The position numbers and the translations under genes were made by a program. Shown piece by piece: positions 1 to 35,190 of a stretch of DNA of 64,000 nt. The notes beneath the pieces were generated by a model. The model was given only the letters and a program-made list of their open reading frames with translations. It did not search any database and was not told the DNA's origin. The first letter of the stretch is position 1; every line of letters starts with the position of its first letter. The DNA comes from Lama glama (Eukaryota). Location: the NCBI GenBank assembly GCA_028534125.1, contig CM052816.1, forward strand, positions 9,116,001 to 9,180,000, in the 5' to 3' direction.

Positions 1-799
1 CCTACTTTTAAAACATGAACTGATTAGTTTAGCATGGTTCGTGGAAGAATGATGAGCTGAGAGTCCTGAGGTCTGAGTTCTCATATAGGCTTTGCCACAA
101 AACTGTCTGTAAGTGTTGAACACATGACTCAGTCTTTATGGGCCTCAGTTTCTTTATCTTTAACATGGGCTGGGGAGTGGACCCATTACTATAAAGACAC
201 TTTGACTGCTAACCTTTCAGGGTGAGGCGTCAGTTGCCTGCCCTTGACCTAAGGTTGGCTGTGGGAGCCAAGAAACAGGAAACTGATGTTTTAGAAAGAG
301 AAGTCGGCAGCCCCTGGTGAGGTCAAAGCCGGCAGTGTGATGACCTCTGCCCTGGTCAGCAGCCCCACCTCCTCCCCAGAGCTGCTGGGCCAGTTCCTCG
401 GCTGACCCTTGGCAAGAGGAAAGTGTGGGTAACTCCTCACCCCTGGCGCAGTGACCTGTCTGCACCTCCAAGGGCGCCCAACTATACCACACAGACACGG
501 CTGGGCCCCCCGGCAGAGTGGTGTGGACCAGGGCCCTGCAGTCCCTTCCCGGGCTCCAGTCCTGACTCTGCTGTGTCCTGTCAGCCGGGTGAGCTGGGGC
601 GAGTCACCAGACTCTTGGTGTCCTGATCTTTAAGTAGGGGGTGAAGATTAGATGTGGAATTTTCACATAAGCATGTAATAAGAGCTCCGTCAGCATTTCT
701 TCTTCTTCTTCTTAATGTCCACAACTAACACAGTGCTTAAAGTAGGCAACCAGTAATGTTCACTGAATAAATAGGTCACTGATGACTGAACCAGAAACT

Positions 800-1530
800 C
801 ACAGGCCTCCATCTCTGCTCTCTCCATCACCCGTCCTCGGGCTCATCTGAACCGAAGTACTGTTTCCTGAACTTGTCCCCACTGTCAATCCTAGCACCTT
901 TGCTATGGCTTTTTTCTTCCCACCTACGTGTGCCTGTCAAAATTTCATCCTTCAAGGGCCACAGTCACACGCCACCTCCTCCATGCAGCTTTCTTTGCTT
1001 TTCCCGTTGGTACATGCTAACTTCCTCCTCATATCTCCAGTATGTGTCTATATCCCCATGAGCCCCAAGTCTAAGTTTCCAGTAGAGGCCTTTCCCTTGA
1101 ACTCTAGACTTGGGTATCCTACAGCCTGTTCCACGTCCTCCAGTGGATGGAGAATAGACTTCTCATACTCAACACGTCAACCCAACCAATCAGCCAAGCT
1201 TGCCCCAACCCCCGGATGTCTCCTCTCCAGTCATGGCTACCATGCTCCTTGCAGGTGCTCAGGCCCAAACATGGGGAACCCCCCTCACTCCTCCTTCTCT
1301 CACACCCTGTGTTTCATCTGCAGACAGTTCTGCCTCCACCTCAAAGTAAGTCAGAATCTCGCCACATCTCACTGCCTCCGCTGCCCCCACCCTGGCCCAA
1401 GACACACTTCCTCTTACTTGGATTACTGCAGTCGCCTCCTGCTCCTACAATTCTTTCAGATCATAAATCACATCATCATTCTTCTGCTCAAACCGCTGCA
1501 GTGGCTGCCATTTCACTCAGCGTGACAGCC
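800..1530. mobile_element. L2 LINE fragment
   Basis: Pyrimidine-rich L2 3' region motifs (ctggattactgcagtcgcctcct, cttctgctcaaa..cagtggct..ccatt). Confidence 0.6.
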
Positions 1531-1589
1531 ACGCCCCCACACTGGTCTAGCAAGCTCGGCATCCTTGGGACGCTGATCCCTCTCCCCCC

Positions 1590-2060
1590 GCACTGGACGG
1601 TCTTTAGTTATCCTTTGGACCCCTCTTCACCTTTCTCTCCCTTGTTCTGCTGGATGCTGGCCTTCACAGGCGTCCTCAGCTCAGCTCTCTCATCCTTTGG
1701 CTTCCAGTTGTGCTCAGTCAATGGAAGACAGGAGGTGAGAGGATGGAGCATTTATTCCTCTGGCCCCTGTGCATACATGGCCTTGGCCAGCCTGTGGCTG
1801 TGTTCCTCTATTAATGATACAGCTCCTGTTGTCAGCTCTGGCCTGCAGCCATTTCTTGCTACGTTCTGACAGCCACTCTCTCCTCTTGTCCCTTCAGCCT
1901 TAGGGATGCTAACGACTTTTTAGTCTTCCCAGCCCTAGGGTGCCTCACCATCCTTGCTGGTTCACTTTAACCCTGCCCACATTTTGGTGAACAGTTCTTT
2001 CTTTAAACTCTTTTAATTACTCCTTTGAGGGTGCCCTCTGCTTCCTGCCCTATTCTTACT
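1590..2060. mobile_element. ERVL LTR (LTR33-like) relic inside L2
   Basis: ggaggtgagagg..catttattcc, ttctttaaactct, tttgagggtgccctctgcttcctg motifs. Confidence 0.5.
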
Positions 2061-12100: not shown

Positions 12101-12824
12101 CTTTGATGAACATACATATTGTCTACAGCTCCTTCTATGCCAATATACACATTACTTTTTTTGTGGGTAGTATTTTTCCATCTTGTTTAAGAAATCACTG
12201 GCTACCCCAAGTTATGCAGATACTCTTCTCTGTTTTGCTCCAAGTTTATTTGTTTGTTTTCTTTATCGGTATCTTTTTTTTTAAAAAGCACCTAAATAAT
12301 TCTAATGCAGACTATCCACAAATCACACTCTGAAAAACTCTGCAATTTTCCGCTCTAAACCTCACATGCCCTTTAAGAGCTGTGCATCCCGCCCTCTCCT
12401 CCAAACCAAGGTCACCATCTTGGACTTCCTTCTTCAAGGTGGGCTAATGCCAGAGGCCCTCATGGTCCTCAGGCCATTGTCTCTTTTCATGTATCCTTAC
12501 AACAGGGATAAACTCACAAAGCTTGCCAGGGCTGGGTGTAAATGAGTGAGCTGGCGGTTTGGGGACTGTGATGACCAGAGAACAAATGCCCCACAGAGAT
12601 GGCAGCAACCACCCAGTCCCAGATAACTGTTGCCAGATGAGCATGAAGGCCCCAGGCAATAGTTTTTCCAGTTTTCAAAGCCAAGGCAAGCATCTGGGTT
12701 ATGTAAAACACCCTGATTTCTAAATGATGTAGAGCAATTCAAACTTTAAAAATTAACTCTGTGGGGAAAAAAAGAAAAAAAAATGTTCGTGGGTTTTCTG
12801 TGGCCTGTGGCCTCTGGTATACCA

Positions 12825-13015
12825 GTTTTCAAACTTTGTCCTAGAGGAGGGAATCAGGCTGCCACTCCAAGTGTGACCCTGGGACCAGAGCATCTCCTGG
12901 GAGCACATCTGAAATCCAGAAACTCAGGCTTTTAACTGCTGAGGCACAATCTGCATTTTATCAATAATCCCAGGTGATTCATACACTCATTAAAGTCCGA
13001 AAACTTTATGTAGAC
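12825..13015. mobile_element. MER5A-like hAT element
   Basis: gggaccagagcatctcctgggag..gaaatccagaa..ctgcatttta..caggtgattc motifs. Confidence 0.55.
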
Positions 13016-14201
13016 GTATGGTTCTTAATAACTGGCTCAAAGAATCATTTGGGGAACTGGAGAAAAATACCTGTATAGATGTGGCGAGGCGCTCTCCTGG
13101 GCGGGGCCTACGCAGGGTCGGACGAGGGATAGACGTTCATGGCGAAAGGGGCCGCTCTTCCTGTCTGCGGGCCCCTGGCCTCTCCTCCCCGCCCGTTGGT
13201 GGCGTGTGGGAGGCCGCGGTGCGGAGTCCAGCCGACCTCGGTCTCCCGCCCATGCCTCAAGGTGCCGGCCGGGCGGGGGTCGCCTGCCGCAGCGGGCACT
13301 CTGGCCTGGGCGTCTCGGCGCGTCTCACGGGCGCTGCGTGCCCCCCGTCGTGCGTGCGCGCGTCTCGCTCGGCGCTCCGCGGTGCGCCCGCAGCGCTCCA
13401 GGTCGTCCCCCCGGTGCCGAGGCCGAGCGGTGGCGACGTTTTCCTGTTCCTGGCGAGCCCCTCGCGTCCCCACTGCGGTGGTGCGTCCCGTGAGCAGCTC
13501 TCTTCGGGGGGGGAAGTGGGGTGAGACGGTAAGGGAGGCACGCCTGGTGGGGGACAGGTGCCTCGTCGTGGTCGCCGTCACGGCGCGCCGGGCGGGACGG
13601 CCTTGGCCCCCCTCCCCTTCGCAGGGCTTGCACGTGGGCGTGTGAGAGACTGTGGCGGGCTGGGCGAAGAGAAGCGGGGGCTCTGTCAGACTTTTCAGAC
13701 GAGCTCCCTCGTGAGGCAAACGGACGAGCCTGAGTGAGCGGAGGCTTTTCCCGGCGCTGACCGCGAACGCTCACGTTGGCGCCACTCTTATCCAGGCCGC
13801 AGCCCCCACCCCGCCCAGCCGGGAGGTGGCACCTCTTCACATGCCTCCGTGGGCCCGAAGGGTGGGGTGGGGGACGACTCGCCCTCGGTGAGAAAGCCTT
13901 CCTTCTTTAGCCATCCGAGAGGGAGCTTTGAAGTACCGGACTCCCCCAGCTTCCACTCCTCCAAAGCGTGCAGTAACCACCCCTGCCATGTAGGCAGAAC
14001 CCCTCACCTTCGCCTGAGGGGTGCGCGCGCCCCGCGGTGGGGCCCAAAACCTCTCTTAAAAAAAAGGGAAAAAAAAATGCCTGTGACTGGGCTGCAGTAC
14101 GAACGACTTAAACCAGCATTTCTGGAGATGAGGCCCAAGCACTGATATTTTCAAAAAGCAATCTGGGTGATTTGAATAGGCAGCCATGGTTGAGAAGCAC
14201 T
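13016..14201. mobile_element. MER5-type hAT-Charlie element split into two halves (13016-13074 and 14073-14201) by the 5'ETS retrocopy
   Basis: Left half ggttcttaa..gaatcatttggggaact..aaaaatac and right half ..gaggcccaagca..attttcaaaaagc..ggtgatt..gcagccatggttgagaagcact rejoin into a MER5B-like unit. Confidence 0.65.
13075..14072 (+). pseudogene. Processed retrocopy of the pre-rRNA 5' external transcribed spacer (approximately the A'/01 to A0 fragment)
   Basis: GC/CpG-rich block with collinear matches to the human 5'ETS as recalled: ATAGATGTGG 13075-84, GACGTTCATGGCGAA 13132-46, GGCGTGTGGGAGG, GCGCTCCAGGTCGTCCC..GGTGCCGAGGCCGAGCGGTGG, CGCGAACGCTC, CCCTCGGTGAGAAAGCCTT 13882-900, GTACCGGA. A-tail at 14058-72. 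TSD aaaaatacctgt (13063-74) / aaaaatgcctgt (14073-84). Confidence 0.85.
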
Positions 14202-15714
14202 AATTTAGATTAAGCCCTCATTTATCACTGGGAACAGCGAAATCTCAAAAAATAGATGAAATATCTTGATGAACGTGACTTAACTAATGTATGGGAGACT
14301 CTGATTTGTGCTTAGACTCCTATCTCATGATTCCCAAGCCAGAGCCTTTCTGCTGCAGTTACCTTTGGTTCCTGGGGGCAGAACTACAAAATGATCCTGG
14401 TCGACTACAGCTCATTACTGCCAGCTTTCCAGCTAAGCTGCTAGCTTTCAGCACTGACCCCTAACAAGATTTACTAGATGAAGAGCTGTGAACTGATGGT
14501 CCTCTCCTTCAGCCTGTTCAAGCCAAAATCTATTTCATTCTCCCTGTTCATCACCCGCCAAAAAGTACTAACTGTTTCCACTATGAAGAAATGGAAGATC
14601 CACAGCTTGGGTCTCAAAATCCCAGTATATAGGGACAGAAGGAGGCAGACTCCTGGCAGCAATACGAGGATTTGAGTTCAGCTTTAATCAGCAGTGACTG
14701 GATGGAGTGTGATTACTTCATCCCTTATCATTTTAGGGCTGCATCAACAGAAGCACAGGTCCAGAATGCAAACCTAGTAGGTCTGCTTGACTTTGACCCA
14801 TCAACATTTTACAGTTGAAGAAGTTGGGTGAATTAGATGAATGACTCACAAATAGTGTTTGAGCCAAGATTCCAAACCCCTCTTTCCAGTATCAGGTAAT
14901 GCTCATAATATTCTGACCCCATAGTAGAGTGCTTGAGCAGTTGCATGTTCAAAACAACAGAGTAACCGAAAGTAATGGGTTAAGAACTTGAGTCCTCTTG
15001 TTGTATTTTGAGGATACCATGAAGGAGGCCCATATTCCATACGAATAACTTGTGAGATTCCCTTGTACTCTTTTATATCTACTTCCTTGTGCTTTATGGC
15101 TTCAGTCTTCTTTTTTCACCTCTGTGCCATCAAAATAGCCTCCTCCCTAAGCCTAGTCTGTGCCATGATCTTCTTTCCTCTCCTTTTCATTCCAGTTTTA
15201 CAGCTGCAAAGACGGGAACATTTTGGAGAGCTGGGGAGGAAAGAAGTCCCACACAGGACTGGGCAGACAGAAGGGCAGTCTGGGGACAATCATACATTTC
15301 AGGGCCATTACAACCATGCCCCAGCCATCTCCCTAAAGATTCCACTGCCCCTTGCTCTGCTCCAGTACTGCTGTTATCCACCTTGCTGTAGCCAGATCTA
15401 TAATGACCTTGTAGGTTCAGCATATATCAAGCACCTTCAGTATACTAAGCCATGGGACTCAATATGACCTATGGGGGGGAATTTTTTTTTTAAATAAAGT
15501 GGGAACACCCAGGCTGCTGCAGGATTGAGAGCATGTGTCACTGTTCTTTGATAACATCTGAGTACTAAGTAATAATAAGGCAATGTTGATAACAATTAAA
15601 ATTCTTCCAGGCCACCAGCCCTGGAGAAGAAATGGCGACTTGACAAAAACTTGCAATCCTTGCTTATAACTTTCTTATACTCTCACAAATGATCTTTCAT
15701 TTGATATCCTCCAG

Positions 15715-35073: not shown

Positions 35074-35190
35074 GCGAGGAGGGTATAGCTCAGTGGTGGA
35101 GTGCATACTGAGCATGCATGTGGTCCTGGGTTCAACCCCCAGTACCTCCATTAGGAATAAATAAATACCTAATTACCTCCCCTAATCAAA
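35074..35190 (+). mobile_element. Vic-1-type camelid tRNA-derived SINE
   Basis: gagggtatagctcagtggtggagtgc (A box)..ggtcctgggttcaacccccagtacctcc (B box)..aataaataaatacctaattacctcccc. Confidence 0.8.

Follow-up and report, generated by a model that had tools for sequence, protein, structure and literature searches.

A GC-rich insert in the llama (Lama glama) genome appears to be a retrocopy that L1 made, by target-primed reverse transcription, from the A′(01)-A0 by-product excised during pre-rRNA processing. Judged from sequence, this reading is given a probability of roughly 0.8. The insert lies in the window analysed here, a stretch of 64,000 nt on contig CM052816.1 (assembly GCA_028534125.1, positions 9,116,001 to 9,180,000), and its parts are listed in Table 1. 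Its GC content is 0.70-0.79, compared with ~0.40 in the flanks. The CpG observed/expected ratio of the window copy is 0.88. The target-site duplication directly adjoins both ends of the insert, as in a target-primed retrocopy. The two repeats are identical at 11 of 12 bases and were picked up independently in a repeat search of the window, and when the downstream flank was shuffled 1000 times, a match equal to theirs arose only once. To the left of 13075, the sequence is AT-rich and non-homologous, and no flank of the source gene was carried along; likewise, 1465 nt of rDNA from downstream of A0 have no match in the window. The body passes straight into the A-tail at 14057/14058, with no L1 or other 3′ piece in between. 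An Rfam search of the window and the copy loci gave no match for the insert itself and no 5′ETS family. The letters named in the preliminary description are in place, with ATAGATGTGG right after the left repeat and GAGAAAGCCTT and CCGCGGTGGGGCC further on. It had put the 3′ end ~160 nt after the GAGAAAGCCTT block and just after CCGCGGTGGGGCC, in agreement with the measured distance of 157 nt to the last body letters (CCTCTCTT, position 14057), CCGCGGTGGGGCC ending at 14044.

Table 1. Features of the insert and its borders, in window positions.
Feature	Position	Strand	Basis or remark
Left target-site duplication AAAAATACCTGT	13063-13074	+	Family D10 of window repeats; adjoins body
Probable retrocopy body, 983 nt: 5′ETS from the A′/01-associated motif to ~37 nt upstream of the A0-equivalent	13075-14057	+	Homology, alignments, GC
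Conserved-motif remnant ATAGATGTGG (positions 2-11 of the 11-nt motif GATCGATGTGG)	13075-13084	+	Sequence read
Block matched by visual alignment to the region of the human hA′ probe (human rDNA 472-502)	13123-13153	+	Probe table, supplement of PMC6239190
Conserved block GAGAAAGCCTT..GAGAGGG, equivalent of the region with human probe a (1409-1428)	13890-13922	+	Sequence and PMC6239190 probes
GAGAAAGCCTT itself	13890-13900	+	Sequence read
Small GC hairpin GCCCC-GCGGT-GGGGC, 14 nt upstream of the 3′ end	14029-14043	+	RNA fold
CCGCGGTGGGGCC	14032-14044	+	Sequence read
Non-templated A-rich tail, A8 GGG A4, continuing into A5 of the repeat	14058-14072	+	Sequence; no A at the rDNA-like contig equivalent
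Right target-site duplication AAAAATGCCTGT	14073-14084	+	Family D10; adjoins A-rich tail

The insert is one of at least six dispersed 5′ETS copies in the llama genome (2.35 Gb), namely C1 (the window copy), C13, C16, C21, C37, and C290601. The assembly also holds a contig (C145938) of 2538 nt and 76% GC that resembles genuine rDNA. Four DNA queries and three pattern queries of the genome led to no places beyond these seven, and since the search scores the best candidates only, the count of six copies is a lower bound. Three genome matches were obtained with the rDNA version of the conserved block (GAGAAAGCCTT region) and four with another conserved-block pattern, all at already-known places. 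C1, C13, C16, and C290601 are short. C21 is long, carries positions 4-605 of the 18S model, and terminates at an A-rich tract inside 18S, the pattern of internal priming. C37 lacks its 3′ half, beside which lies sequence that we take to be an L1 3′ end, and its 5′ end is ambiguous, reaching up to ~16 nt further upstream. Five dispersed loci were matched by a 1073-nt A′-A0 query, and the sole match of a control query (the 1465 nt that follow the shared 3′ end, described below, in the rDNA) was C21, which continues into 18S.

The window body is 65-75% identical to the six other 5′ETS-like places in the genome. Against the rDNA-like contig, identity is 71.5% over 899 aligned columns, with the conserved blocks in identical order. 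Since pairwise identities among the copies and this contig are no higher than 62-74%, alignments of the GC-rich bodies are uncertain. From the identity and block order shared with the contig, and from the continuation of C21 into 18S, the source of the insert is very probably the transcribed 5′ETS of the species' own rDNA. Words sampled from the contig occur in RNA-derived contigs of public runs at shares of 0.67, 0.54, and 0.50, and in public DNA at 0.91; these values, which concern word content only, are no more than a hint at expression of the contig as rDNA. A tree of the copies and the contig has the shape of a star: its terminal branches measure 0.16-0.33, its inner branches at most 0.035, and the contig lies among the copies. 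The terminal branches suggest ages of tens of millions of years.

Flanks and duplications differ from copy to copy. In the corresponding shuffle test on the sister copies, equal matches were found in 11 (C290601), 111 (C21), 141 (C16), and 326 (C13) of 1000 shuffles; by this measure, support for a duplication is weak in C13, C16, and C21. The L1 endonuclease has the target consensus TT/AAAA. The duplication begins with AAAAA in the window copy and C16, AAAC in C21, and AAGA in C290601, C13 being atypical with GTAA. The window copy thus has the A-rich, L1-endonuclease-like target of an L1 retrocopy. The flanks of C16 are presumably a single L1 3′ region cleanly split by the insert, and those of C13 and C21 also seem L1-like.

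All five readable 5′ junctions fall within ~5 nt of each other at the head of an 11-nt conserved motif, taken here to be spelled GATCGATGTGG as in the preliminary description, and each lies next to a different, non-homologous flank. The first bases are ATAGATGTGG in the window copy, (T)GACGGATGAGG in C290601, GACGGATGTGC in C21, CTCTCTGTGG in C16, and CATGCGGC in C13. The agreement of ends between independent copies far exceeds what chance would give: by hand arithmetic, if a ~1000-nt template were truncated uniformly from its 5′ side, four further starts would all come within ±3 nt of the first one in ~(7/1000)^4, or ~2e-9, of cases. The motif had been placed a few nt downstream of A′/01, and a preprint gives the distance from the processing site as 5 nt (bioRxiv 10.1101/2021.06.09.447752). 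The human A′ site is double (414-416 and 420-422), and all 22 of 22 cloned A′-A0 molecules have 5′ ends at 415-424 (Kobylecki et al., 2018, PMC6239190). The window insert starts at motif position 2. A′ was located by the motif alone, the head of which presumably corresponds to human nt 420. A 24-nt pattern from C290601, searched with up to three mismatches, matched that copy alone, and the genuine A′ region of the rDNA was thus not found in the assembly; as a result, the 5′ mapping rests on the conserved motif rather than on the species' own unit.

At the 3′ side, three of the four short copies terminate within 4 nt of one another and then pass into poly(A). The window copy ends in CTCTCTT, C13 in CTCTTT followed by an A-rich 17-mer, and C16 in CTCTTTGCC followed by A14. 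The fourth, C290601, stops ~32-35 nt earlier, at approximately human nt 1574, and has an A/T-rich tail. At the shared spot, the rDNA-like contig reads CTCTTTGCC followed directly by TGCTGTGGCC (also given as CTCTTTGCC followed by TGCTGTGG). No A-run occurs there, so that the tail is not templated in the rDNA, consistent with the added tail supposed in the preliminary description. The canonical poly(A) signal AATAAA is not present near the shared end in this contig.

The position of the shared end was read in a human frame set by two probes listed in the supplement of Kobylecki et al. (2018), d at 1582-1601 and e at 1622-1639; the 20-nt interval between these probes is also 20 nt in the contig. 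In this frame, with A0 located by alignment to human coordinates, the shared end lies at approximately human nt 1605-1609 (window copy ~1605-1606), and A0 (1643) follows 34-38 nt further on. On contig C145938 itself, the shared end corresponds to positions 1483-1487 and the A0-equivalent to position 1449. The claim that the boundaries of the insert coincide with processing sites therefore probably holds at the 5′ side, where the A′/01-associated motif is found, and stands at the 3′ side in its milder wording, "shortly upstream of A0"; coincidence with A0 itself does not hold. Neither end is far from 01 or A0, and the endpoints of the dispersed copies in this genome (five of five readable 5′ ends, three of four short-copy 3′ ends) are clustered rather than random. 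This clustering supports the proposal of a defined by-product rather than a random 5′ truncation, with the correction that the template would be a 3′-trimmed form.

The human by-product behaves in a comparable manner. The 3′ ends of the 22 cloned molecules range over 1534-1634, full-length A′-A0 reaching 1643 was never detected, and the form named "y" has its 3′ end between probes d and e (Kobylecki et al., 2018). Because the llama 3′ end falls inside this trimmed range, it matches a decay intermediate and not a primary cleavage product. In mouse, the adenylated 5′ETS ends mapped by PA-seq are concentrated at A0 (±2 nt), a build-up not seen at A′ or where 18S begins (Dorweiler et al., 2014, PMC4057207). 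The match of the downstream control query to C21 only is in line with adenylation specific to A0. The preliminary description had XRN2 degrade the spacer fragment, which is contradicted by reports that XRN2 does not degrade A′-A0 (Wang and Pestov, 2011, PMC3061060; Kobylecki et al., 2018); the fragment from A0 to site 1 is an XRN2 substrate (Sloan et al., 2014, PMC3964915; Wang and Pestov, 2011). The intact 5′ ends of the copies fit with XRN2 not acting on A′-A0. It had also invoked oligoadenylation by TRAMP-like complexes. Adenylation at A0 is supported by the mouse data, but A′-A0 levels were unchanged upon PAPD5 depletion in human cells (Sloan et al., 2014), and for this reason TRAMP-like tailing remains conjectural.

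Upstream of the shared end lies a small GC hairpin (Table 1). When a 111-nt stretch of the window was folded (z = -2.53), the hairpin was present in the minimum-energy structure as well as in the centroid. It recurs in the centroid of the rDNA contig, where the whole stretch folds no better than its shuffles (z = -0.89). In view of its small size and this latter value, a role of the hairpin as a stall signal is put forward as a suggestion.

Taken together, the copies could have arisen as follows. The Pol I transcript would be cut at A′/01, leaving at the conserved motif a 5′ end shielded by protein, after which cleavage at A0 would free the spacer fragment. The 3′ end of this fragment would be trimmed by ~35 nt, as far as a preferred stop that lies 13-16 nt beyond the small GC hairpin on its 3′ side, and a poly(A) polymerase of the surveillance machinery would add non-templated oligo- or poly(A) to the trimmed end. 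In the germline, L1 ORF2p would prime from the A-tail on a nicked A-rich target, and reverse transcription would reach the very 5′ end of the RNA, leaving the 12-nt target-site duplication. Repeated events in the lineage would have given the short copies C1, C13, C16, and C290601 these ends. C21, which has the putative A′ 5′ end yet runs through A0 into 18S, would have come from an A′-cleaved precursor. Of all this, the make-up of the insert, the common ends, and the lack of both an encoded A-run and a canonical poly(A) signal are observed; the template RNA, the order of trimming and tailing, the tailing enzyme, and the part played by the hairpin are inferred. Several observations count against this course of events. 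As mouse adenylated ends lie at A0 ±2 (Dorweiler et al., 2014), the trimmed-then-tailed form is an extra assumption; in addition, one short copy (C290601) ends elsewhere, the 5′ end of C37 is ambiguous, and the end of C21 has the internal-priming pattern.

An unlikely variant of this scheme retains the retrocopy mechanism and takes the shared 3′ end to be the true endonucleolytic A0 of the source lineage, the A0 mapped in human by primer extension then being the 5′-trimmed end of the downstream product. Such a cut would agree with the stop of three independent copies within 4 nt, with the adenylation of mouse ends at A0 ±2 rather than at trimmed positions (Dorweiler et al., 2014), with the failure to detect human A′-A0 ending at 1643 (Kobylecki et al., 2018), and with the A0-to-site-1 fragment being an XRN2 substrate (Sloan et al., 2014; Wang and Pestov, 2011). 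However, the human clones end anywhere within 1534-1634, some of them downstream of 1609 (Kobylecki et al., 2018).

It is rather improbable that one founder retrocopy gave rise to a small retroposon family, in which the shared ends were inherited rather than repeatedly set by RNA processing. All copies do radiate from near one point of the tree, as a single burst from one source would allow, and their ends agree to a few nt. However, the rDNA contig is not an outgroup to the copies but is placed between them. C21 has the same 5′ end but passes A0 into 18S, and with that continuation it must derive from rDNA transcripts. Furthermore, no copy carries the flank of another, as read-through from a founder would give, and the 1-kb, 70% GC sequence has no apparent internal promoter. 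The 3′ ends vary by 3-4 nt, and by ~35 nt in C290601, a raggedness that fits RNA ends better than a single master.

Still less credible is an ordinary retrocopy of a long pre-rRNA (47S/45S), randomly 5′-truncated and internally primed, with a coincidental match to processing sites. Retrocopies of this type do occur in this genome, as C21 ends at an A-rich tract in 18S and 18S-like fragments have scattered ends (best 16 of 549 candidates). For the A′-A0 copies, random truncation is largely refuted by the clustering of the ends at both sides, and internal priming has no substrate, the rDNA-like contig lacking any A where the copies end together. Lastly, an origin at the DNA level (segmental duplication, double-strand-break capture, or a degraded dispersed rDNA unit) has a precedent in human degraded rDNA units with intergenic spacer, whose describers argue that reverse transcription cannot have produced them (Robicheau et al., 2017, PMC5381670), but is scarcely credible beside the duplication, non-templated A-tail, and A-rich target of the window copy, its lack of intergenic spacer and of any sequence upstream of A′ or beyond the shared 3′ end, and the flanks of C16 (cleanly interrupted), C13, and C21 that resemble the L1 consensus. 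For the window copy, a DNA-level fragment was excluded on account of the duplication and tail. Two further candidates were rejected: a chimeric template-switch retrocopy of the U6-L1 type, given that no L1 or other piece separates the body from the A-tail, and a dispersed rDNA pseudogene of the Robicheau type, given the duplication, the A-tail, and the presence of the A′-A0 segment alone.

A literature search found no report of retrocopies of the A′-A0 spacer by-product. L1 copies mRNAs and stable small RNAs, and the retrocopy reading adds a degradation-bound Pol I spacer fragment to its templates. Tentatively, and with somewhat less than even confidence, A′-A0 retrocopies can be viewed as an unannotated, probably mammal-wide class of processed pseudogenes, the ends of which are a fossil read-out of ancestral germline pre-rRNA processing. 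The shared 3′ end would then be either a conserved, adenylated stall point of 3′-5′ decay, 13-16 nt downstream of the GC hairpin and ~35 nt upstream of the mapped A0, or else a real endonucleolytic cut, the mapped A0 being a 5′-trimmed end; in both cases, it would be usable for placing A′ and the by-product 3′ end in species without biochemistry. If the retrocopy reading holds, the copies would supply genomic evidence for adenylation of the by-product in the ancestors, in their germline or early embryos, and would suggest a preferred, 3′-trimmed end. Only the exosome-routed, adenylated A′-A0 would leave short retrocopies, and XRN2-routed pieces none, which mirrors the biochemistry and would provide an independent check on it. 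The copies would also offer a sequence-only means of locating A′/01 and the A0-proximal end in non-model mammals, and would account for some of the unannotated GC-rich, CpG-island-like islands within AT-rich DNA.

L1-mediated retrocopies of non-coding RNAs include those of U6 and other snRNA, snoRNA, and 7SL. The llama insert is similar to these in its target-site duplication, A-tail, A-rich target, and ends set by the ends of the RNA template, but its template would be a degradation-bound Pol I spacer by-product and not a stable functional RNA; unlike U6-L1 template-switch products, it has no chimeric L1 piece. In comparison with the mammalian 01/A′-A0 (ETS2) by-product itself (Wang and Pestov, 2011; Dorweiler et al., 2014; Sloan et al., 2014; Kobylecki et al., 2018), the llama copies share a 5′ end beside the motif, probably at the A′ doublet, a 3′ end tens of nt short of A0, and a similar size (~1.0-1.1 kb, versus ~1.2 kb in human). 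The known RNA is adenylated and shielded from XRN2 at its 5′ end, and the A-tailed llama copy would be its counterpart. The llama case differs in that it is a genomic fossil in DNA rather than an RNA, its ends being placed through human coordinates, and in that the 3′ stop at ~1605-1609 is sharper than the human clone spread of 1534-1634. Dispersed rDNA-like pseudogenes of human and mouse likewise place rDNA-derived sequence outside the arrays; as described in the available part of the article, they are DNA-level degraded whole units that include the intergenic spacer, unlike the llama insert. That part describes no retrocopies of spacer by-products, and the word "retrotranspos" is absent from the paper (Robicheau et al., 2017).

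The llama copies also resemble 18S/28S pseudogene fragments as dispersed copies of Pol I products, with C21 itself holding 18S sequence. Fragments of 18S/28S rRNA origin are the SSU-rRNA/LSU-rRNA repeats of repeat-masking libraries. In the llama genome, the 18S-like fragments have scattered endpoints, whereas the A′-A0 copies have common ones. A search of the genome with RF01960 (18S), in which the best 16 of 549 candidates were scored, returned fragments at model positions 4-605, 43-434, 1187-1492, and 1282-1468. True 18S was absent among these 16 scored candidates, and the search is a weak control. The same search also gave four model-wide matches of 151-220 bits.

The evidence supports the GC-rich insert of the window (copy C1) as a retrocopy made by L1, with a degradation-bound Pol I spacer fragment as its template, and we put the probability at roughly 80% that this fragment was the adenylated by-product lying between the A′(01) and A0 cleavage sites of the pre-rRNA 5′ETS. 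Cleavage at A′ would leave a protected 5′ end, cleavage at A0 would release the spacer fragment, and the 3′ end of the fragment would be trimmed back to a preferred stop. The trimmed RNA would then be oligo- or polyadenylated, allowing L1 ORF2p to prime on the A-tail and copy the RNA to its end. The preliminary description had proposed L1 copying of an adenylated A′-A0 fragment, a reading that is supported here in a 3′-trimmed form and without XRN2. The features it had named in the insert are all present where it placed them, confirming its observation. GC content is 0.70-0.79 within the insert vs. ~0.40 in the flanks, with sharp edges, and the direct repeat adjoins the insert at both ends, an equal match arising in 1/1000 shuffles. 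No Rfam family matches the insert. Both flanks (12800-13060 and 14085-14210) contain related pieces of an old interspersed repeat with the motifs ..atctg..ttt..a..cc(c)aggtgatt..a..a... and ..gagaagcact.., so the retrocopy inserted either within a copy of this repeat or between two of them.

Coordinates and junctions of the window copy (C1), its sister copies, and the human rDNA probes (junctions as flank / body or body + tail)
Feature	Position	Strand	Sequence or remark
Insert body start	13075	+	opens ATAGATGTGG, read directly
Insert body end	14057	+	closes ..CCGCGGTGGGGCCCAAAACCTCTCTT, read directly
A-rich tail	14058-14072	+	A8 GGG A4, read directly
Direct repeat (repeat family D10)	13063-13074 and 14073-14084	+	AAAAATACCTGT / AAAAATGCCTGT
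GAGAAAGCCTT block	13890-13900	+	157 nt upstream of body end
C1 5′ junction			..ACCTGT / ATAGATGTGG
C290601 5′ junction			..CCAGAAG / TGACGGATGAGG
C21 5′ junction			..CCTAAGA / GACGGATGTGC
C16 5′ junction			..GAATAAT / CTCTCTGTGG
C13 5′ junction			..TTAAAAC / CATGCGGC
C1 3′ junction			..CTCTCTT + A-tail
C13 3′ junction			..CTCTTT + AAAATAAAACAAAAAAA
C16 3′ junction			..CTCTTTGCC + A14
C290601 3′ junction			32-35 nt earlier (..GCGCCG), then ~55 nt A/T-rich tail
C21 3′ end			through remaining 5′ETS into 18S (Rfam positions 4-605), stop at A-rich 18S tract
Probe hA′	human rDNA 472-502		PMC6239190
Probe a	human rDNA 1409-1428		PMC6239190
Probe c	human rDNA 1556-1573		PMC6239190
Probe d	human rDNA 1582-1601		aligns to ..CGGCGGGGCCGTGTGCTGC by eye
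Probe e	human rDNA 1622-1639		aligns to CGCCTCCCCCCTCCGAGT by eye

The 2.35-Gb assembly (1,072,352 contigs), in which the window is C1:9116001-9180000, was searched with four DNA queries, namely the insert, the A′-A0 part of the rDNA-like contig C145938, the C21 copy, and the C16 copy, and with three pattern queries at up to 3 mismatches. All matches are confined to seven places, C145938 and the dispersed loci C1, C13, C16, C21, C37, and C290601; dispersed 5′ETS copies number at least six, only the best candidates being scored by the search. Among the matches listed, the 1073-nt A′-A0 rDNA query hits five dispersed loci, and the sole match of the 1465 nt of rDNA downstream is the long C21 copy. 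The genomic copies mirror the A′-A0 selectivity of adenylated RNA seen in mouse, where poly(A)-anchored sequencing found adenylated 5′ETS ends to accumulate specifically at A0 (±2 nt; PMC4057207). C145938 (2538 nt, 76% GC) reads as minus-strand 5′ETS from end to end, and its sampled words are shared with RNA-derived contigs of public runs (0.67, 0.54, and 0.50) and with DNA of one organism label (0.91). It is taken as genuine rDNA on three grounds: base composition, the absence of AT-rich flanks, and this presence in public runs. Since it stops ~47 nt after the copies' start point, A′ is not covered, and the rDNA around A′ is absent from the assembly. The assembly apparently holds this one 2.5-kb piece of genuine rDNA, the arrays being essentially missing; among the best 16 of 549 candidates there are four model-wide 18S-family matches of 151-220 bits and no intact 18S (top RF01960 score, 220 bits).

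Copy junctions were read directly and in a MAFFT alignment. All five readable starts (C1, C290601, C21, C16, and C13) fall at -1 to +4 of the 11-nt conserved motif GATCGATGTGG, spelled here as in the preliminary description. C37 has a degenerate motif copy with ~16 GC-rich bases before it, either flank or spacer, leaving its 5′ end ambiguous; its 3′ half is missing, and both ends are unreadable. The sequence adjoining the missing half is presumably an L1 3′ end. C37 (L009 1290-1480, G000:C37 ~78290490-78290680) also carries a ~60-nt unit, ..CGCCTCGCCTTCACGCCTTCA[C/T]GC[C/T]TTCACTGCGCATGTCTC.., in ~3 tandem repeats, an expansion that neither the rDNA contig nor any other copy shows in the alignment. 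One study confirms the existence of an 11-nt conserved motif near A′ and puts the processing site 5 nt upstream of it (bioRxiv 10.1101/2021.06.09.447752). Human A′ is a doublet at 414-416 and 420-422 (PMC6239190). From this spacing and these coordinates, the motif head would lie at human ~420 and the copies would start at ~419-423.

The 3′ ends were placed with the human coordinates that Kobylecki et al. (2018; PMC6239190) give for probes lying in conserved blocks, compared by eye with the rDNA contig, in which the interval between probes d and e is 20 nt, as in human. By probe alignment, the shared 3′ end corresponds to human 1605-1606 (window copy and C13) and 1609 (C16), and one of the four short copies, C290601, ends away from it at ~1574. 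With human A0 at 1643, the A0-equivalent is position 1449 of C145938, 34-38 nt beyond the shared 3′ end via human coordinates. Of the two insert boundaries, the 5′ one would lie at A′/01 by way of the conserved motif, and the 3′ one lies shortly upstream of A0, in line with the preliminary description. All 22 cloned human A′-A0 molecules have 5′ ends at 415, 416, 419-422, or 424 and 3′ ends within 1534-1634; at no time was a full-length fragment seen, a nuclease takes off the first ~40 nt (1643-1601), and XRN2 is not involved (PMC6239190). A′-A0 was likewise unaffected by Xrn2 in the work of Wang and Pestov, who note stable binding of protein and U3 just downstream of A′ (PMC3061060). PAPD5 depletion in human cells left A′-A0 levels unchanged (PMC3964915). 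Like the human and mouse RNA, the copies are intact at the 5′ end, cut back at the 3′ end by some tens of nt, and followed by an A-tail. However, the adenylated mouse ends lie at A0 itself and the shared end of the copies upstream of human-placed A0, which suggests either that trimming precedes tailing or that the cut site differs. Where the rDNA contig corresponds to the shared end (..GGGGCCGTGTGCTGCTCTTTGCC/TGCTGTGGCCCGCGCC..), it has neither an A at that point nor an AATAAA-type signal in the vicinity, so the tails are neither templated nor canonical. A small GC hairpin precedes the shared stop by 13-16 nt. It forms in the window-copy fold (z = -2.53), and the centroid of the rDNA contig contains it too, the stretch as a whole falling short of significance there (z = -0.89); by eye, C13 also retains the stem. 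That this hairpin causes the stop is offered only as a suggestion from these folds. It is unusual that the copies' ends, placed via human coordinates in the one genome searched, reproduce experimentally known ends of A′-A0 RNA. A full-text literature search, with most subscription journals outside its coverage and absence therefore no proof, returned no report of 5′ETS by-product retrocopies; the nearest work concerns rDNA units degraded at the DNA level (Robicheau et al., 2017; PMC5381670).

Each locus has its own flanks and its own duplication, so the insertions are separate events. In shuffle tests the duplications of the window copy (1/1000) and C290601 (11/1000) are strongly supported, and those of C21 (111/1000), C16 (141/1000), and C13 (326/1000) weakly. 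By L1 consensus, the two C16 flanks read as a single L1 3′ region, cleanly interrupted by the insert. Among the copies and the rDNA contig, any two sequences are 62-74% identical, and transitions and transversions occur in about equal numbers. The maximum-likelihood tree has a star-like shape: terminal branches measure 0.16-0.33, inner branches reach at most 0.035, none of them well supported, and the rDNA contig (branch 0.23) falls among the copies. One burst from a single founder copy may explain such a tree, but the copies share no flank, their 3′ ends are ragged, and the long C21 copy combines the same 5′ end with an 18S tail. The sequences fit several old insertions that drew on the rDNA of a single epoch, after which copies and rDNA drifted independently. 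C21 is a long rDNA retrocopy of ~2.9 kb (G000:C21:4486816-4489735; L012 7816-10000 and L013 1-735) and looks like a fossil of an A′-cleaved precursor; ~48 nt that the rDNA contig has around the A0-equivalent region are missing from it. The copies retain CpG observed/expected ratios of 0.66-0.98, the window copy standing at 0.88, and so behave like CpG islands; these apparently old copies may have acted as unmethylated islands since insertion. Elsewhere in the window, a tRNA-Ala (anticodon AGC) was called at 35079-35150 (+) by both Rfam (39.3 bits) and ARAGORN; it may represent either a genuine tRNA gene or the head of a tRNA-derived SINE.
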